Shown one piece after another: positions 400 to 63,149 of a stretch of DNA of 64,000 nt (positions within the stretch are counted from its first letter, which is position 1; the number at the start of each line of letters is the position of its first letter). The notes under the pieces were generated by a model that was not told the DNA's origin, ran no database searches, and was given only the letters and a program-made list of their open reading frames with translations. Origin of the DNA: Hormiphora californensis (taxonomy: Eukaryota > Animalia > Ctenophora); the NCBI GenBank assembly GCA_020137815.1, contig CM035360.1:992001-1056000 (forward strand). The letters are read 5' to 3'. The position numbers and the translations under genes are program-made.

Positions 400-18643
<18,244 letters not shown>

Positions 18644-19962: not shown

Positions 19963-20388
19963 TCACTCATACATGAGACCCTTGCTAGTATACAACATGG
20001 ATGGAAGACTGTAGTTATAGTACCTGTACCTGCTCTCCCTAATCCCCGGGTACATCTCAGCCTTCTCATGGTACCGCACATTCATATAATCATCAGCAGC
20101 TACCCTCCTTGGTCGGGCATATTTTCCCGCCTTTTTGTCGAGAGAAGGAGCGTGGTATACCCTGTCCGCGGCGGTAATGGCATCACTTCCAAATCCGTAT
20201 CGCTCACTGGGTGTTTGGTATCCAGAGGAGAGGTATTTGGAGGGACCGTATGCCTTTAGGAATGCTTTGTGAGCAGGGCCCTCGTAGGTAACTTGGTCGA
20301 CAATGAATCTGGTGTTGTTTGCGGTGGAGTGGGTTGCTAGAATTCGACGGTGCCGGTTCAGGATAATGCTATCACCTTGGAAATCCAT
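19963..20388 (-). CDS. Hypothetical intronless Tyr/Arg-rich protein (141 aa, MDFQGDS...), copy 1 of a tandem duplication
   Basis: Open frame from ATG 20388, preceded by an acceptor-like TATATTTTAG. A paralogous copy is interrupted by the Maverick-type element. No family recognised. Confidence 0.4.
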   Translation of the reverse strand: MDFQGDSIILNRHRRILATHSTANNTRFIVDQVTYEGPAHKAFLKAYGPSKYLSSGYQTPSERYGFGSDAITAADRVYHAPSLDKKAGKYARPRRVAADDYMNVRYHEKAEMYPGIRESRYRYYNYSLPSMLYTSKGLMYE

Positions 20389-21822
20389 GGGATGGTGGTG
20401 TGCTAAAATATACAATTGGGCGGGGTTTATAATTTGTATTTAAAATTAAAATTCATTTGAAATTCAAAATTGGAAGTAGACCAAGGGCTAGGACGACAGG
20501 GACAACATATTATTGTTCGTAGATATTGTTCTTAAAGAAGACAGGCCCTGACGGGGACAACAGTATTGTTCGTAAAACATGAAGATACAGGAAACTGTGC
20601 ACCAAGTTCGACAAATCGACAAAACAAAGAAGCAGGGCGAACAACACATGGGAGAGTCGGAGAAAAACCCCAGCGCAGCACGGGTTAGTTAATCCGTTTA
20701 ACATCGCAGCAGCAACACATGAACACAGACTAGACCAATGTCACACAGAACACGATTCATAGTGATAGAAAGGAAGTGCCGGGTGGGTAGTGGGTACTGG
20801 TAGTTCGCCACATGGTGCACCATGTCTGTAGAATAGCATGTCATTCGCAGTTTTCAGAAGGCCGCAGCCAGCTTCGCCCAATGGTTGCCATGCTACGGCG
20901 TAGCATGGCAACCTGGTTTCAAAGCGATTTTCGCGGCGTCTGCGCCAATTCCAGGAAGCAGTACAAGTGATTTCCAAACAACCAGGGCCTAGAAAAAGGT
21001 CTAGTCTATCGTTCTAGGGGGGCTCTTTTTTGAATTTTTTTTTTTCCACGAAGAGCCCTGAGCTCAGTCTATCAGTCCGGTGTGTGAGCCAATATACTGG
21101 GAGCACGTCAACCCTAGTCTTAATCTCCACTACCAAGACCCTTGCTAGTGTACAACATGGATGGAAGACTGTAATTATAGTACCTGTACCTGCTCTCCCT
21201 AATCCCCGGGTACATCTCAGCCTTCTCATGGTACCTCACACTCATATAATCATCAGCAGCCACCCTCCTTGGTCGGGCATACTTTCCCGCCTTTTTATCA
21301 AGAGAAGGAGCATGGTATACCCTATCTGCTGCGGTAATGGCATCACTTCCAAATCCGTATCGCTCACTGGGTGTTTGGTATCCAGAGGAGAGGTACTTGG
21401 AGGGACCGGATGAGTAGTATATGGTGTGCAGTTGGGACCCCCCTTTTCACGATAACCGGGGCCACATTCTGGCCTCTGATTGGCTGTTGACTATGGTCAC
21501 GTGACAAAACCCTGGCCTCTGATTGGCTGTTGACTACGGTCACGTGACGAAACCGATAAGGTCACGTGAGAATCCCGTGACACCACATGGTATCACGTGA
21601 TCATTTCCTTTGCTGTGATTGGTCGGTTGCTGTATCACGTGACCAATATCGGTAGATTTATCGGTCACGTGACGGTCACTGTAGTCACGTGGTAATCATG
21701 TGACCCATGTCTGCTGCTCTGATTGGCTGTCGACTATGGTCACGTGAAATCACATGGTATCACGCGACCTTTGACTACGGTCACGTGACAATCACGTGAC
21801 AATCACATGGTATCACGTGACT

Positions 21823-21886
<64 letters not shown>

Positions 21887-22110
21887 AAGAAGCATCACTA
21901 GACAAGAGAGGTGTCAAATGTGTGTTAGGTGTGTACCAGGTGTTTTCACTACACAGTCATATTATGGAATATGGTTTATGGGTGATCATTTGAAAATATC
22001 CAAGATATCCTTTTGATTATAAATGATCACTCGTAATAACGTGTAAGACGCATAAAGGAAAACAACCAATTTATGTATTCCAAAAGAAACAAAAATTTTG
22101 AATTAACTGT

Positions 22111-22888
22111 TCATCTAACTTTACGAAAATGCAAAACCATCGACGTAGGGAAATCTCTCGCATCATCTTCTGAAAACTCAAAAAACTTGCCCATATTGTC
22201 ACAAATTACAAACTGTATTTCAGTGAAGGAGACAAATCTCACTTTGAAATAAGAAGGGTTTACAAATTCATAATGATTGTATCCCATTTTTGCGTCGAAT
22301 GGAACATAGCGAAAAATCTCGAGTCATGTTCATTTATTTTGTCTATAGTCCGTGTGTGCTTGTGGTGCAATGTTTGAATAGATATGTCCAAGTTTTGCAT
22401 GCCTCGGAAAGTCCATCTTAGCCGCAATTTTCGATGGTAAAAGGTCAGTGCAATGGACTGTTTTCATGAAAATCTTAAAAAACTCAAAACACTATTTTCA
22501 CTCGTTGCAAATCCGTACTGGAATGATGATACGCCAGGTACATACATGTGTTGTTTCATCTGCAAAGTACTCTGGGATAGGCCAATGATCAGAACCATTC
22601 GCCAGATTTTCCGTTTCTTTGGAGTTTATAGCCTGTTGCATTGCTAGCAGCAACTGTGGTCCGTTTCGATAACACCCAGGTGGAATCGAGTAATCTCTGG
22701 ATTCATAATCATGTCCCTTTTCGGATACCAAAAAATGATTGTTACCCTCGGTTACATTAAATGTGATGAAGGAGCGTGAATAACACTTTTACAGCCACCT
22801 CATAGTTGTCATTCAAGTCTAAAGCATTCTCCGAACGAAAGACAAATTGACTGGGGTTTTGTTTATGGCTAGTAGCGATAAGGTACAT
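22111..22888 (-). pseudogene. Polinton/adintovirus-like minor capsid (penton) protein, disrupted
   Basis: Translated pieces: MYLIATS..LDLNDNYEVA, FNVTEGNNHF, IPPGCY..LLLAMQQAIN, IYSNIAPQ, RYVPFD..YEFVNPSYF, ICDNMGK, VLHFRKVR*. AACC precedes the ATG; frameshifts and stops present. Confidence 0.75.
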
Positions 22889-23016
22889 GGTTAAAACTAC
22901 CAGTGCGAGCATTGTTTTTATAGGAAAATGATCGTTGGTGACTTTTTTAGGGTGACAAAAGAACGAAGGTAAACACCAGTTTTCATGCGACTTAAAAATA
23001 AGAACATGCTAAACTT

Positions 23017-24302
23017 TCAAATAATGAAAAATTGTCTATTTTTATTCACTTCAATAACTTGTTCGTACCAAGCGAGTACCATCACTACTAGATCTCAGTT
23101 GGTTTGTCGCAACATTTCATGGATAATCTGACAGTTCACTTTGCATCAAGTGAGGCCATGCTGATTTTGTGTTTTATCTTGCGTGAGATCAAATGCCAAG
23201 GCTGGATACACCCTGTAATGGTGCATGACCATAGAGTCTCCCTACTACCAGTTCCGTTTACAAACTCTGCCATCCATGTTAGTCTCAAGATGATCGTAAT
23301 TTCTAAAGCTCGTGGGAAATGTTCTTTTCCATTTACATACAGCTGAGCTGGTTTTTACCAGATTCATGTGAAACGGGTTTTTACTCCTCTTTCTTCCTAG
23401 GGTCACTTCTGTCTTGTACACATACAAGGAAGAGAAGTATGGTAAGGACCATTGATAAGGTTTCAGCTGTATTGTGGGTGGAACGATCCGTCACTGGAAA
23501 AATATTCATAACTTTTTTGTCGGCATGATAGATGGCATTTTTCTTTGCAAGTCGCTCTTCAATTATACTGAGCACAGTATCCCGAGGTCTTTGAAAAGTA
23601 CATCTTAAGAATACCTTGTCAAAAAAACTTCATCGGTATTAGTGTCTGCCAGTAGAAGATAAACCCGGAGTAGTTTTTCGTCAGCTTAATTTGAATGTTA
23701 CTTCGTAGGAAGAGCTTTCCTTGTTTGAATAGAGGATGTTTAGATCTGAACTCAAATAGACAGTTTTATACCTTCTTCATAAATTTGGCTCTTTCTTGAC
23801 CGTTTACATTTTTATGACTCCCTGTAGCTGGATAAAACTCCAAGTTTTCACTATCTGTCTTATCACCCACAGAATCAAGATCTAATCCCTCAAGACGCTA
23901 GTAGTGCTCGGGAATCATGAATTATGATTACATCATCCCAAAATTGAACATGGAGTAGGAGTTGTCATAAGAGGGTTAAAGAAACCCCGCCAGCATAAAC
24001 CTCAACATTTCTCTCCACAAGTGGCCGCAAGATGAGGTGAGTGGAACATTTGTTGGCGTGGAATAGCTGCGGTGGATTAGCTCTACTCTCTGTAAGTACC
24101 CGCAGTTCTGTGAATATTTCAAACATTTCCAGCATATACCGCTCCATAGATGGAATGGTAAACGAAATCTCATCAGAGTTCTCGCGGGAGGTTAGTAGGT
24201 AAAGTCCCACCCTATTCGTTTCCTAATTATCCTTGTGTTGGTTGGGATCCCAAAGGTGAAGTTGCGAAGAAAACCTTCGGCAGACTTGATGTACTTTGAC
24301 AT
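23017..24302 (-). pseudogene. Polinton/adintovirus-like major capsid (double jelly-roll) protein, disrupted
   Basis: Pieces: SQLHLWDP, NSDEISFTIP, NVEVYAGG, NPFH..QLYVNG, LAFDLTQD, WYEQVIEVNKNR..*. About 430 codons; AACC precedes the ATG; many frameshifts. Confidence 0.75.
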
Positions 24303-24348
24303 GGTTAGCTATACAGAGATAACAATTCCCTTTTATAGGAGATACGTT

Positions 24349-24651
24349 TTAAGAGAGTTGGTCAACTTTCCTTTTACAACTTGTCAATTGATTCTTTGGC
24401 TCCATGCAATTTTGTTTACTGCATAGTTGCTTGCAGCACCAACAAGTTGATTTCCAGCATCTTGGAGACCAGGTTTCGCTAACTCAAAACCTTGTTTCAG
24501 TATCGTTTTTTCCAATGGTATAACCGATTAAAAATTTTCTTTAAAATCCGCCCAATCCCGCACCGTTGGTTCGAATAAACTCCGGATCCCTTCCTAATGC
24601 TTGTCGATAAACTTCAGGGTCGGGTGCAGCTTCTGTATAACTGACACGCAT
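24349..24651 (-). pseudogene. Polinton small core-like protein (PW/pVII-like), disrupted
   Basis: MRVSY...PDPEVY...NGAGLGGF followed by an amphipathic basic helix (KTILKQGFELAKP). The GxGLGG motif is typical of these proteins. Confidence 0.65.
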
Positions 24652-24745
24652 GGTTATAATATTTGCTACTATGAGACTTGTTGAATATCTCTCCTTCTCT
24701 CTCTATATTATATATAGGTTCATTGACCACTCATAATCATGAACC

Positions 24746-25177
24746 ATGGAGTGTATTCATTGTGATCGAACCTTTTCTTCCAAACATAGCTTAGCGACGC
24801 ATAAAAGTCGCTTCCAACCGCTCTGATTACAAATCAGATTTTGCTAACAACGAAGGGTTAATAAAGTTGATGATGAAGGCAGTTCTTGATGGAGAGATAA
24901 TTTTAACTCTAGAAGAAAAGAAGAAACTTCTTCCAGCAAGAGATAGTATAGAAGAAATAGTCTACAATGAAGCGAAGCTCACGATGTACGACAAAACTTG
25001 GAATCAGCAATTAAACTAATTGTCAAGTTTACGAAAAGAGATTTCCAAGTTTGGTTTTTAACAATCCGAGAAAAATCTCAAGATAGGGTTGAAAATGTGA
25101 CTGATCAGGAATTCGATAGTGAGACATCTGAGGATGATCAGAGTGGTGATGAACAAGAAAGTGAGGCCGATGTGTAA
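24746..25177 (+). pseudogene. C2H2 zinc-finger protein with an acidic tail, disrupted
   Basis: MECIHCDRTFSSKHSLATHKSRF...; ends SEDDQSGDEQESEADV*. Divergently oriented from the capsid genes. Confidence 0.6.
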
Positions 25178-26977
25178 TGCTACTGTAATATTAAATTTCC
25201 CCTACAACAGAGTCTCCCTTTTGCGTCTTATTAAAATGACTATCGAATGATCACTCATAATCACGAATGATCATCGATAATCACGAATGATATCTTGGAT
25301 ATTTTCAAATGATCACCCATAATCATTCCACAATATGACTAGTATAGTGAAAACACCTGGTACACACCCAAAACACATTTGACACCTCTCTACTCTAGTG
25401 TGGTGCTTCTCAATGTCTCTCTCTCTCTCTCTCGCTCTCTTCTCTCTCTCTCTCAGTCACGTGATACCATGTGATTTCACGTGATTGTCACGTGACCGTA
25501 GTCAAAGGTCGCGTGATACCATGTGATTTACGTGACCATAGTCGACAGTCATCAGAGCAGCAGACATGGGTCACTGATTACCACGTGACTACAGTGACCG
25601 TCACGTGACGATAAATCTACCGATATTGGTCACGTGATACAGCAACCGACCAACACAGCCACAAAGGAAATGATCACGTGATAACCATGTGGTGTCACGG
25701 GATTATCACGTGACCTTATCGGTTCAGTCACGTGACCGTAGTAACAGCCAATCAATCGAGGACCGGCCAGGTTTTGTCACGTGACCATAGTCAACAGCCA
25801 ATCAGAGGCCAGAATGTGGCCCCGGTTATCGTGAAAAGGGGGGTTCCAACTGCACACCATATACTACTCGTATGCCTTTAGGAATGCTTTGTGAGCAGGA
25901 CCCTCGTAGGTAACTTGGTCGACAATGAATTTGGTGTTGTTTGCGGTGGATGGGTTGCTAGAATTCGACGGTGTCGGTTCAGGATAATGCTATCACCTTG
26001 GAAATCCATGGGGTGGTGGTGTGCTAACTGCTAAAACACACAATTGGGCGGGGTTTATAATTTGTATTTAAAATTGTAAAGAACCATCTAGATGGAAATT
26101 CAAAATTGGAAGTAGACCAAGGGCTAGCATTCAAGGACAACAGTATTGTTCGTAAAACTCTGAGCATGAAGATACAGGAAACTGAGCAGTGAGCACCAAG
26201 TTCGACAAAACAGCAGGGCGACAAATCGACAAAGAAGCAGGGCGAACAACACATGAGAGAGTCGGAGAAAAACCCAGCGCAGCACGGGTTAGTTAATCCG
26301 TTTAACATCGCAGCAGCAGCACATGAACACAGACCAATGTCACACACACACAACACGATTCATAGAAAGGAAGTGACGGGTGGGTACTGGTAGTTCGCCA
26401 CATGGTGCACCATGTCTGTAGAATAGTAGTGTTCGCAGTTTTCAGAAGGCCGCGGCCAGCTTCGCCCAATGCAAATGGTTGCCATGCTATAGTGTCTGAC
26501 GGTGTATCATGCATGCGCATGGCAACCATAGGGCTACGCAGCTCAGTCTATCAGTCCGGTGTGTGAGCCACTGAGCCAATATACTGGGGTTCAGCACGTC
26601 AACCTTAGTCTTAATCTTTATCTACTTCTATATCTAGCTCACAAATAATTATACGAGTCGTATTATTTGTGTCCACTTGTCAAGACCACTACCAGCTCCA
26701 GAATCCTAACTCTGTCGAGCACTATACCTGGAATCCAGGTCCTGGGTCCCAGGACCTGGATTCCAGGTAAAGTGCTCAAATCAAATTGGGGTATGTAGTA
26801 CTAGTATGGGCGCCGCCATAACAGTGCACTTGAACTTTGCAGGCAGTGCAGTGTGCAGTGCGCTCAGATGGGCCCGGGCCCGGGCGGCGGGCCGGGGTCG
26901 CGGCGTCAGACAGCTCTAAGAGATCTCCCTGGGACGTCTCTATAAGGAGATCTCCGGAGGTGAAAGGGAGCACTATT

Positions 26978-27743: not shown

Positions 27744-44792
<17,049 letters not shown>

Positions 44793-46714: not shown

Positions 46715-59021
<12,307 letters not shown>

Positions 59022-59398: not shown

Positions 59399-62300
59399 TT
59401 AACCTCCAAGAAACGGACGGTTGGGTATGACATTTACAAACGGGTCTCCGCCACCACCCTGTTGAACTTGTTGAGCTGGAGCTTTCGCTTCTGCTTTCTT
59501 TTTCTCCTTTTTCTTCTTTGCTTTTTTGGCAGGTGGTTTTTCAGGAGCAGATTCTGGATTTCTATCAGCTGCTTTCTGCTTCTCCTTTATCTTCTTTGCT
59601 TGTTTGGGAACAGATTCCTCTTCGCACCGGTAGGTATTTTGATGTTGATCCTGCCTTTGCTGAGCTGGAGTTTTCTCTTCTACCTTCTTTTTCTCCTTTT
59701 TCTTCTTTGCTTTTTTGGGAGGTGGTTTTTCAGGAACATATTCATCTTGGCGCCGGTAGGTATTTCGCAGAGGATAATACCCAGCATTGTTCATAGGGCG
59801 TCGGTAGGTTTCTCGAGAGTGCGAACCATTTGCCCACAGTTCTTGGCGCTGTGGCTCTTGGCGTTGTAGGTCTTGGCGATTTGATTCTTGAAGATTCGGT
59901 CCTTGGCGCTGTAGGTCTTGGAGATTTGATTCTTGAAGACTCGGTCCTTGGCGTTGTGGCTCTTGGCGTTGTGGCTCTTGGCGTTGTGGCTCTTGGCGCT
60001 GTGGTTCTTGGTTAGTCGATTCTTTCTGTAGATTCTTACTATTCACTGGTGTGATCAGAGCAGCCATTATCTTATCCGCGATCAATGCCTTTCTATCCTC
60101 CTCAGACGGGCCAGACGGAGGTTTCACTGGTTTCGAATTGGTCGCTTTTGGTGAGCCAAGCGTGCTAGTCGGCTTGGATTCCAGGCAGTTAGTACGAAGT
60201 TGATTCTGTGGTTCTTGCTGGTTACTTTTCTCAACAGCTTCTTTCTCGGGATCCTGACTTTTGGCTGCTGGTTCTTTCCCAGAACCCGTACTTTTGGCTG
60301 CTGGACCTTTCCCAGAACCCGTACTTTTCCAAGCAGGTTCTTTCTCGGGACCCTTAATTTTCTCTGCAGGTCGTAGAAGGGAGGCCATTATCGCAGCTGA
60401 GATCAGCGCTTCTTGTTTTCCCGCAGATGAACCAGTCGGGGGTTTCACAGGTCTTTGTAGATGCGAACTGGTCACTTTTGGCAAACCAAGGGCACCACTT
60501 GCCTTGGGTTTAGAACCACTTTTCGATGCTCCAGCTGGTTCTTTCCCAGAACCCTTAGTTTTCACTGTTGATTCTATCTCAGAACCCTTGATTCCATTTT
60601 TCATAGGTCTTAGAAGGGCAGCCGTAATCTTATCGGGACCCTTACTAGCAGCTCCCGGTTCTTTTTCAGGACCCTTAGTTTTTGCTGCTTTCCCAGAATC
60701 CTTAATTTTCTTTGCAGGTTCTCTCCCAGATTTCGCTGCTGGTTCTTTCTTAGGACCCTTAGTTTTCGCTACTGGTTCTTTCTTAGGACCCTTACTTTTC
60801 TTCTCTATCGGTTTCTTTTTTACTGGTTTCAAGAGAGCAGCCATTATTTTAGCTGAGACTAGTGCCTTTCGTTCCTCTTCAGACGGCGGTTTCACTGGTT
60901 GCGAATTGGTCGCTTTTGGCATACCAAGTGTGCTAGTCGGCTTCGATTCAGGGCAGTTAGTTGGAAGTTGCTTCTTTATTGGTGAATTCTTAGCCTTAGG
61001 TAAAGTGGATTTCGGCTTGATTTTCCTCGGAGGCTTGGCTGTTTTGACAACGTCCGACTCAAGAGCTACAGATTTTGGCTTAAGGTTCGGAAAATCAGAG
61101 GACATGATCATTGGACATCGCTGTTTTTCTTGGGCTGATTCGGGCACATTATTTGCACAGGTACTCATGTGATGCCCAAGCTCAGAATCAGGGAAGAAGC
61201 AGTGACAGAACACACATGATTTCCAGTGCAACTCGACATTCTTTCTCCCCCTTTTTTCAACTTGATCCAAGACTATTGCCGGTACAAGAAACTCGCCGAA
61301 GTAAATCGGGGGAAACTCAAGATTTCGTGGCTTGTCACACTTTGGAAAAGGATATTTTACCCTTTCCTTTGTTTTGTCGTCTCGTGTTCTGTAAGTTGGA
61401 AGTGTGCTATAAATGCCTCCTCTTTCGATGCACACCCGATAATGATTGGGCATGTCCAAGAGATCAACTTCGAAATTACACAGCTCACAAACGAATTTTT
61501 CGTTATCATCATCATCATCATCTAATGGATCCTCTGCGGTAGAGTTCCCATGGATATCAATTTCGGGAAACTCCTTCGGGCTTATCAATCCAATGTGCTG
61601 AAAATTGAATGCCGGTTCCTTCGATCGTGTTGGCATGTTCTGTGACCGGGCAGCAGCCTCCGCTAGATTCCTTGCCACTCTGGCAGGCGTCAATGCCTTC
61701 AATTTGTTTCCACCGCTAACTGTAACAGGAACTTGTTCGTCCAACTCATTCAGCGCATCAATGGTACGGACCATGTTATCGGAATGTGCAACACCTTGAT
61801 TTAGCGCTTCTAGAACCTTCGTATTACCACAAACTATGTGAACAGTTCGAGGGAGAGTTTGACAAGTTGATAGAACCTGTTGAGCAGCCAGCAACACAGC
61901 ACACAAGTCAGCTCCAAACCTTCCGACACCTCGAGGAGCGAGTCTTTGCGAGAATGTTTTAGGTTTTTGACTGCCCTGCAGAATAACGCCCGCACAGCCA
62001 CCTTTGCAGTCGAGTACCATCGACCCCGAAGTAAAGATTACCACGTCCCGTGGGAAGGAAATATCAAGAAGTCGGTTGAAGGGGTTAACGTTGAAGTGAC
62101 GGAAATCAGCCCAAGGAGTGGAAGAATTCTTACATCTTCCACGTTTGTGGAATTCCATCATGTCACGATTAGACCACTTGAAATCCTTTTTACATCGGGT
62201 ACACTTGACAAGCCTCTCTTTGCAGAATTTGTAGAGATGATCGTCCATGAAGGAATATCTCACCATCTTGTAGCACATGGGGCATCGTTCTTTCAGATGC

Positions 62301-62659
62301 TGGTTAGAAATAAATCGGCCCAAATTCCGATACTGCTTTCTCTCGTTGTAAAGTTTGGAGAACCTATATCTCATAACACTCCTAGGGGTAAACTTCCTCC
62401 TCTTCTTCTTCCATCCAGGACATGTTCTGCCTTTGTGTTTTAGAATCAGTTTGTGACACCTCTTACAAGTTTCCGGATCATCCGATTTAGCAGAATCCCC
62501 ACCGGTCGTCCCAATAACTGCTGATGTTTTATCATCAACAAATTCTGCGTACTCAGGCGGATATTTCTTGGAGTGAAAGAATCTTCCCAAGGTCGGAAGT
62601 TGATCTTGACGATCACTATTCTCGAGGTCAACCTCAATGACCCACTCAAAATTTACCAT
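59399..62659 (-). CDS. 1086-aa intronless protein: C2HC/TRAF-like zinc fingers, degenerate RNase H domain, K/P-rich repetitive tail
   Basis: Uninterrupted ORF. VVIFTSGS...FSQRL...FGADLCAV...VHIVCGNTKVLEAL...ALNEL...ARNLA follows the non-LTR RNase HI pattern. Several CxxC...H...C motifs. Confidence 0.75.
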   Translation of the reverse strand: MVNFEWVIEVDLENSDRQDQLPTLGRFFHSKKYPPEYAEFVDDKTSAVIGTTGGDSAKSDDPETCKRCHKLILKHKGRTCPGWKKKRRKFTPRSVMRYRFSKLYNERKQYRNLGRFISNQHLKERCPMCYKMVRYSFMDDHLYKFCKERLVKCTRCKKDFKWSNRDMMEFHKRGRCKNSSTPWADFRHFNVNPFNRLLDISFPRDVVIFTSGSMVLDCKGGCAGVILQGSQKPKTFSQRLAPRGVGRFGADLCAVLLAAQQVLSTCQTLPRTVHIVCGNTKVLEALNQGVAHSDNMVRTIDALNELDEQVPVTVSGGNKLKALTPARVARNLAEAAARSQNMPTRSKEPAFNFQHIGLISPKEFPEIDIHGNSTAEDPLDDDDDDNEKFVCELCNFEVDLLDMPNHYRVCIERGGIYSTLPTYRTRDDKTKERVKYPFPKCDKPRNLEFPPIYFGEFLVPAIVLDQVEKRGRKNVELHWKSCVFCHCFFPDSELGHHMSTCANNVPESAQEKQRCPMIMSSDFPNLKPKSVALESDVVKTAKPPRKIKPKSTLPKAKNSPIKKQLPTNCPESKPTSTLGMPKATNSQPVKPPSEEERKALVSAKIMAALLKPVKKKPIEKKSKGPKKEPVAKTKGPKKEPAAKSGREPAKKIKDSGKAAKTKGPEKEPGAASKGPDKITAALLRPMKNGIKGSEIESTVKTKGSGKEPAGASKSGSKPKASGALGLPKVTSSHLQRPVKPPTGSSAGKQEALISAAIMASLLRPAEKIKGPEKEPAWKSTGSGKGPAAKSTGSGKEPAAKSQDPEKEAVEKSNQQEPQNQLRTNCLESKPTSTLGSPKATNSKPVKPPSGPSEEDRKALIADKIMAALITPVNSKNLQKESTNQEPQRQEPQRQEPQRQEPQRQGPSLQESNLQDLQRQGPNLQESNRQDLQRQEPQRQELWANGSHSRETYRRPMNNAGYYPLRNTYRRQDEYVPEKPPPKKAKKKKEKKKVEEKTPAQQRQDQHQNTYRCEEESVPKQAKKIKEKQKAADRNPESAPEKPPAKKAKKKKEKKKAEAKAPAQQVQQGGGGDPFVNVIPNRPFLGG

Positions 62660-63149
62660 GGTGAAGAAAAGTTGTAGTTGCTGGTGATAAGAGCGTATCT
62701 ATGGCATGTCCTAAAGTGGAGATAGGAGGTTGAGTTAGAAGTTGATATTGGGTTAAAATTGCAGGTTTTAGTCGACCAAAAAACAACTTTTAGAAAACCT
62801 TTCATGTAAGAAACAGTTACAGAAGTTAAAAGATAATCACATTTAGCTCAAATGTTTAGCTTCAAAAATCAAGAGATTTTTCGGATAAAAAATTGAAAAT
62901 TAAATGAATCAAATCCAAATCAAGGGTCCGCATCACTCACGTTGATAGGTATCACAGCGATCGCAGTTCAATGAACACCAAAGAAATCGATTACAAATGC
63001 AACCCGTGCTTTTCAGTCATTTTCATTTTCGCCACTCTCCTAAAAACTCAAAAGCAAGCATGATGACAAAACGCAGAAAAGATAAAGCATCTGGAATCTA
63101 ATTAAACATTGAAAGTCGAAAGATCGGATCCTTGTTCATCCCACATTAA

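Follow-up and report, generated by a model that had tools for sequence, protein, structure and literature searches.

A 64,000-nucleotide stretch of the Hormiphora californensis genome (contig CM035360.1, positions 992,001 to 1,056,000; hereafter the window) contains an inverted-repeat element of 4,456 bp with the ends of a Maverick. It occupies 21413-25868 and reads AGTAGT inward at both ends; coordinates and termini are exactly those of an original prediction, made from the sequence, of a capsid-only miniature Maverick. The terminal inverted repeats (TIRs), predicted to be about 600 bp long, measure 625 bp on the left (21413-22037, plus strand) and 609 bp on the right (25260-25868, minus strand, ending ACTACT). 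The arms are 89% identical counting gaps, with 25 substitutions in 596 aligned bases (4.2%) and 18 gap openings. Besides its AGTAGT end, the left arm carries 11 CACGTG and five CCAAT motifs, a 43-bp tandem repeat and a GA microsatellite. The element is flanked by CGGATG on the left (21407-21412) and, from comparison of the flanks, by CGTATG on the right (25869-25874). A paralogous copy of the flank 1.2 kb away contains a single CGTATG and no element (20247-20252), and this empty site proves insertion with a 6-bp duplication. The predicted target site duplication (TSD) was thereby confirmed, with the reservation that its copies match at only five of six positions. Contigs with the empty site are also present in two of the runs described below (X5 and X8). 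The target itself is a repeat family with a spacing of about 1.16 kb and a 158-aa open frame (19976-20895; 21136-21412 plus 25869-26489), and its empty site is abundant, at a depth of 988 in X5.

Four genes fill the interior, as had been claimed, although it is 3,222 bp long and not 3.3 kb. Their spans cover 2,818 bp, separated by gaps of 27-128 bp. The minus strand carries a minor capsid gene of the penton type (22111-22888), a major capsid gene of the double jelly-roll type (23017-24302) and a gene for a small protein in the PW slot, referred to as 'core' (24330-24651). On the plus strand lies a small gene whose product has a C2H2-like finger at its N-terminus and an acidic tail (24746-25177). 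All four are frameshifted in this copy. Each starts with AACCATG, which bears out the earlier observation; the motif occurs four times in the interior, always at a gene start, compared with a mean of 0.37 in shuffled sequence, and none of 500 shuffles reached four. TATAAA is found 35 bp upstream of the major capsid gene and 34 bp upstream of the minor capsid gene, and TATATA 35-37 bp upstream of the finger gene. The box of the core gene is 63-65 bp away, in the spacer which it shares with the finger gene.

The long minus-strand gene encodes a double jelly-roll major capsid protein (MCP), as judged from the modelled fold of an intact natural homolog. When the frame was translated with X at stops, the best intact homolog was P0002, of 431 aa. 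Its AlphaFold2 model (predicted local distance difference test, pLDDT, 70.6) was compared using Foldseek, with the Sputnik MCP on top (E = 2e-14) and the major capsids of an iridovirus, PBCV-1 and mavirus also matched. The jelly-roll capsid of the original prediction is thus borne out by these folds, while no Pfam capsid family was found in nine frames read with X or in seven intact MCPs. The gene behind the MCP matches the minor capsid protein (mCP) of three related loci (L003, L004 and L006) in tblastn, with E values of 1e-15 to 5e-20 and 24-25% identity. The third Atlas match of the L003 homolog was the Sputnik V18/19 minor-capsid cluster, of which 26% of members carry the Pfam family, with a score of 0.98, just under the level of reliable recognition. 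An AlphaFold2 model of the mCP had a pLDDT of 37 and was not used, and a sequence search of the PDB with the mCP alignment gave one chance match.

The two small genes were identified in part. The gene before the MCP matches the PW-slot homolog of L003 (42% over 40 aa, E = 7e-7); this syntenic match stands, and 'core protein' is a positional label for a putative function. The zinc finger of the plus-strand gene, also claimed originally, falls below the Pfam cut-off (zf-C2H2_jaz, E = 0.0013), and no homolog of this gene was found in the related loci or the fetched proteins, nor any usable match in the Atlas. The copy is decayed, as had been noticed, with at least 11 frame changes in the MCP gene compared to P0002 (17 compared to P0022) and at least seven in the mCP gene. 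Part of this indel-rich damage could be assembly error, although long gap-free arms are found in other repeats of the window.

The enzymes of an autonomous Maverick were not found. Neither the integrase piece (a 169-aa C-terminal query), the ATPase, the 107-aa and 73-aa proteins and the protease of the related loci, nor 120 protease homologs and a pPolB-like piece from the Mnemiopsis leidyi gene model P0285, gave a tblastn match at E ≤ 0.01 anywhere in the window. The integrase of the related loci is presumed to be one from its motifs, and their ATPase has weak Pfam support; PF00770 is precomputed on the protease homologs. PZ, packaging ATPase, cysteine protease and retroviral-type (RVE) integrase are therefore all missing by tblastn at this threshold. 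Protein-primed PolB is absent as well, because the tiled 3.2-kb interior has no room for it and the pPolB-like part of P0285 finds no match. That part forms the C-terminal piece of a fusion with the MCP in P0285 and is taken to be pPolB-like from a motif. The element is not an autonomous Maverick, and the statement that no leftover fragments of other genes are present agrees with these searches.

The order of the genes was compared with that in ten related loci (L001-L010), obtained from 144 candidate stretches in a scan of metagenomes. In L003 the order is integrase piece, ATPase, 107 aa, 73 aa, mCP, core, MCP, and a protease follows the MCP in seven of the ten loci (L002, L004-L006, L008-L010); L001, L003 and L007 are cut off before this can be judged. 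From the sequences of these relatives the ancestral order is taken to be mCP-core-MCP-PRO, which extends the mCP-core-MCP order given in the original prediction by the protease. The element instead has core-MCP-mCP. Two Pleurobrachia gene models have neighbours in the same arrangement, P0010 with the core fused ahead of the MCP and P0022 with the mCP fused behind it. Of the 22 gene starts checked in the loci (mCP, core, MCP and protease), all have a TATAWA box 32-44 bases upstream except that of one duplicated mCP gene (70 bases). The spacing in front of the relocated mCP gene is like that of a protease gene, compared with 44 for other mCP genes. Throughout L001-L010, TATAAA or TATATA was seen at a fixed spacing before all the genes checked for mCP, core, MCP and protease, but is lacking before the ATPase gene and before both small genes upstream; such boxes possibly define a late-promoter class. 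The full-type relative L004 has two tandem minor-capsid genes, 69% identical (454-2078).

Part of the interior was present in 13 of the 15 runs listed. Four runs were examined closely (X1, X3, X5 and X8, from three studies and with two organism labels), and their contigs cover 30, 30, 28 and 29, respectively, of 30 interior bins. The interior contigs listed have depths of about 140-1,950, whereas the lowest among the X8 contigs listed are at 5-11, depth not being the same as copy number. Smaller shares of the interior were found in X11, a seawater metagenome (0.09), and X13, a metatranscriptome (0.06). Bridging of the junctions was scored by a 31-letter rule. Among the contigs listed, two of the five junctions are bridged, core/zinc finger (X8 record 32) and core/MCP (X5 record 23 and X8 record 31). 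The adjacency of MCP and mCP rests on P0022 and on a contig that ends 8 bases before reaching the mCP start, and the joint between the left TIR and the mCP spacer has a depth of 837 in X3, with a short side of 29 letters. Beyond the terminus, contigs of both X1 and X5 pass into one and the same further flank, which points to a second insertion site. As in derivatives of the type called MITE (miniature inverted-repeat transposable element), the family is mobilised and multi-copy, by its depth and this second flank. Depth, bridged contigs, second flank and the conserved short clade described next all agree with the claim of a self-contained unit and not a single random deletion.

Capsids related to that of the element were placed in a FastTree tree of 109 sequences, from which P0022 was omitted as a duplicated fusion and for which P0010 and P0285 were trimmed to the capsid part. 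P0002 falls in a clade, here called A, made up of P0002-P0008 and P0010 (seven clusters, support 98, 67-100% identity). Its capsids are intact, stop-free and 431-437 aa long across the seven clusters, unlike MITE-like derivatives, in which interior coding is not conserved. The P0002 cluster has intact capsids on 25 contigs, the longest of which, at 4,436 bp, is 20 bp shorter than the element. P0002 clusters at 90% with a gene model of Pleurobrachia bachei, and exact 6-mers shared by the frames of the window cover 310 of 420 residues of that model compared with 252 of 431 in P0002. By this, the host is likely a ctenophore of the Pleurobrachia type. No clade A member exceeds 5 kb (0 of 30; maximum 4,857 bp). 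In a comparison that omits six assemblies over 50 kb, the eight members of 4 kb or more span 4,087-4,857 bp, whereas in the outgroup 35 of the 41 contigs that reach 4 kb are longer than 5 kb (Fisher p = 7e-6 by member; by cluster, the members being non-independent, p is only 0.044).

Co-location with a protease was inferred where a capsid contig had the same size as any of 172 protease-bearing contigs. By this fingerprint, which was seeded from outgroup proteases and detects about one in five true cases, 20 of 95 outgroup capsids share a protease contig size (chance mean 1.6), compared with none of 22 in clade A and none of 10 in its sister, clade B. Eleven further sizes added later gave no protease match either, by eye. 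The short form looks old and conserved. The outgroup includes capsid models of M. leidyi, and a HMMER search with representatives gave 1,660 matches at E ≤ 1e-10, without genomic context. Two Mnemiopsis models, P0470 and P0474, fuse a 212-aa protein, unlike the mCP of the loci, to the MCP; to judge from these models, the Mnemiopsis clade has yet another gene neighbourhood.

A helper or partner was sought in several ways. Clade B contains P0009, P0011, P0012, P0253, P0299 and two more Pleurobrachia models. It is present in the same host as clade A and could represent a helper with its own capsid. Four of its capsids (P0012, P0039, P0040 and P0461) are on contigs of 5,548-5,953 bp, with none longer and no match to a protease contig, so that clade B is possibly a second short size class in that host. 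All six Pleurobrachia capsid models seen (P0022, P0010, P0452, P0038, P0302 and P0460) belong to clades A and B, the members of 20 of the 108 capsid clusters having been looked at, a coverage which may miss a full-type host capsid. The protease cluster P0156, with contigs up to 8.3 kb, was considered as a partner and rejected: its 8,326-bp contig shares its size with that of the MCP P0266 and represents a full element. No Pleurobrachia member was present in ten protease clusters looked up, and a protease tree built by a quick method showed no tie to clade A. TIR patterns were absent from collections of viral and metagenome contigs, including the inner-TIR pattern in metagenome contigs, and scans of viral and genome contigs found nothing.

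Depth provided a further, crude measure, in which even the expected twofold excess of TIR over interior was not seen. The outer TIR has a depth of 646 in X5, against 677-1,179 for the interior (main contigs listed), and of about 320-550 in X8, against 220-730. Other size classes with the same TIRs, anticipated by the original prediction, are therefore not evident in these runs, and the depths agree more readily with a helper that has different ends than with a co-abundant partner that shares them. Beside the microsatellite, a stretch of about 40 bp of the TIR (25458-25496; X1, X3, X5 and X8) is common to a far deeper family, which then diverges; its depths in X5 are 8,730 and 11,050, more than 10-fold higher, and it possibly represents a MITE or else another Maverick end. 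Of the proposal that the element is a genome segment or a satellite, the self-contained, multi-copy capsid unit has stood, while no partner segment or helper has come to light.

The interpretation we prefer, tentatively and at somewhat less than even odds, is that a Maverick-type unit of 4.46 kb has integrated here, encoding virion proteins and a small zinc finger only, and that it belongs to a stable, helper-dependent family of the satellite type whose helper has its own capsid. Under this interpretation polymerase, integrase, ATPase, PZ and protease would have disappeared from an ancestor, whose minor capsid gene would have moved behind the MCP, into the slot held by the protease in relatives. 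The steps supplied in trans are modelled on established Maverick biology. The protein-primed polymerase of the helper would copy the element from its AGTAGT-ended TIRs and the RVE integrase of the helper would insert it. The element's own MCP and mCP, made from the TATA-box promoters, would form particles, which would be filled by the helper's ATPase and matured by its protease. Selection on particle formation would then keep the capsid intact in the family.

Several observations weigh against this interpretation. No helper Maverick was identified, and clade B, being short (5,953 bp or less) and protease-less by fingerprint, is weakened as a full-length helper. The size contrast is much less striking by cluster than by member, and the fingerprint and the depths are subject to the limits given above. 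The contigs of clades A and B are known by their size and capsid and not by reading their gene content, and size alone can mislead, as full elements can yield fragments of this size, namely L003 (4,385 bp) and L004 (4,327 bp). Under the 31-letter rule no contig among those listed bridges the MCP/mCP junction or either TIR/gene junction. The proportion of contigs running on into unlike sequence is 0.03 in X1 and 0.02 in X3, but reaches 0.21 in X5 and 0.16 in X8, and a diverged subfamily, about 88% alike, departs just upstream of the mCP start.

The loss of the interior of one full-length Maverick by a single deletion after insertion is very improbable here and largely refuted. The copy is old or damaged, with TIR arms only 89% alike, and the two TIR/gene junctions are not strictly bridged among the contigs listed, but a single deletion cannot turn mCP-core-MCP(-PRO) into core-MCP-mCP and leaves no explanation for the lack of truncated enzyme genes. 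Moreover, four runs hold the layout at high abundance, the contigs that run on make up only 2-3% in X1 and X3, and the joint of TIR and mCP spacer is itself deep in X3. A passive MITE-like derivative, amplified with capsid genes as passengers, or the presence of clade A capsids in full-length elements whose contigs break near 4.5 kb, is unlikely, with more in its favour. The broken state of the copy in the window, the internally deleted variants in X5, whose joints skip 280 and 902 bases, the existence of full-element fragments of the same size and a cap known from contig sizes, not gene order, are all compatible with it. Against it are the stop-free, full-length capsids in seven clusters at 67-100% identity on contigs below 4.9 kb, the rearranged, gap-free gene order with its promoter boxes retained, and the nearest cluster, whose longest contig comes within 20 bp of the element.

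It is less probable than a satellite, though a serious possibility, that the element is the obligate capsid segment of a split (multipartite) Maverick, in which polymerase, integrase, ATPase and protease reside on other segments, capsid-less and likewise bounded by TIRs, and the set works only together. Since all six Pleurobrachia capsid models fall in the size-capped clades A and B (4.9 and 6.0 kb) with no protease-contig match, no full-type capsid has been seen in that host, which keeps the split genome alive; the 20 of 108 clusters covered may, however, leave out a full-type host capsid. An ATPase and a protease must fit the capsid they serve, so a partner without a capsid would be the simplest. 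The much deeper family that shares about 40 bp of TIR before diverging points the same way, and bidnaviruses, in the part of PMC8502044 available, offer a precedent for bipartite, pPolB-based genomes with matching termini. However, no partner was found, the sole candidate (the 8.3-kb protease contig class) has its own MCP, and the outer-TIR depth is about that of the interior and not the fourfold expected of an equally abundant partner with the same TIRs. Were the genome split, the split would perhaps date from before the divergence of clades A and B, and the element would be the capsid segment of a multipartite, integrating double-stranded DNA virus of the ctenophore Maverick lineage, an outcome to which we assign the same limited likelihood.

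Both the satellite and the segment differ from systems already described. Capsid-encoding satellites such as satellite tobacco necrosis virus make their own shell and little else and depend on a helper for replication. The element resembles that virus in having its own capsid and no replication genes that could be found. It differs in being linear double-stranded DNA with TIRs, in integrating, and in having a double jelly-roll capsid from the helper lineage itself, and its enzymes for packaging and maturation would likewise have to come in trans. Bidnaviruses are single-stranded DNA viruses with a parvovirus-type capsid and are not known to integrate. The Bidnaviridae have a bipartite genome with matching termini and a Polinton polymerase, according to the available parts of PMC8502044 and PMC11071308; no second segment was found here. 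Transpovirons, in the available text of PMC11071308, are reduced, helper-dependent descendants of Polinton-like viruses which kept replication and lost the structural module. They are the mirror image of the element, which kept the structural module and lost replication.

Mavericks (Polintons; polintoviruses, adintoviruses) have an (AGT)2 end motif, a 6-bp TSD, TIRs of 46-1,447 bp and a size of 12.7-24.6 kb, in the portions available of PMC8097293 and PMC8502044. The element shares the (AGT)2 ends, the TSD, a TIR size within that range and the MCP, mCP and PW-slot genes, and its capsid nests among those of ctenophore and marine-metagenome Mavericks. Compared to them it is only 4.46 kb long, five of eight core genes are gone (pPolB, integrase, ATPase, PZ and protease), the mCP is behind the MCP and there is one extra gene, for a zinc finger. 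No capsid-only or segmented Maverick and no Pleurobrachia Polintons were found in the literature searched, most subscription papers, Repbase and supplements being outside its scope; nor does a capsid-only or segmented Maverick appear in the accessible parts of PMC11296320, PMC11131425, 10.64898/2026.10.13.758929 and 10.1101/2025.02.07.637071. Whether Mavericks form infectious particles is a long-standing open question, as put in the portion of PMC8097293 available. Here the enzymes have all been shed and the capsid genes are intact across the clade, so that there is hardly any gain to be had except via particles, which makes the family well suited to a clean test. With a partner that has its own capsid, the element would be a capsid-encoding satellite of an animal Maverick; with one that has none, the result would be a segmented genome in a group of double-stranded DNA viruses described as monopartite.

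None of the eight other inverted-repeat elements of the window has Maverick ends. One of 2.9 kb at 34415-37339 has 215-bp TIRs starting GGTAGT and interior 10-bp GGCGCC-rich arrays; it is of the foldback type, and the length of its 8-bp TSD (TTGTTTTC) sets it apart from Mavericks. Two near-perfect palindromic elements (49897-51207 and 55827-57229), with arms of 617 and 551 bp that are 97-99% identical and with common TTAAGGGTAC ends, are likely a MITE family. Three long open frames were also noted. A 264-aa frame at 14741-15535 (minus strand) has no Pfam match at 0.01 and resembles a non-LTR retrotransposon at its end with zinc knuckle and restriction-like endonuclease. A 1,099-aa frame at 59399-62698 (minus strand) contains Cys/His motifs, Lys/Pro-rich repeats and a segment which we take to resemble a degenerate, putative RNase H, and its only Pfam match is a weak one to CEP104_ZnF. 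Finally, a single frame of 607 aa at 53451-55274 (plus strand), again with no Pfam match at 0.01, has a signal-like start and Cys-rich repeats that resemble scavenger-receptor domains.

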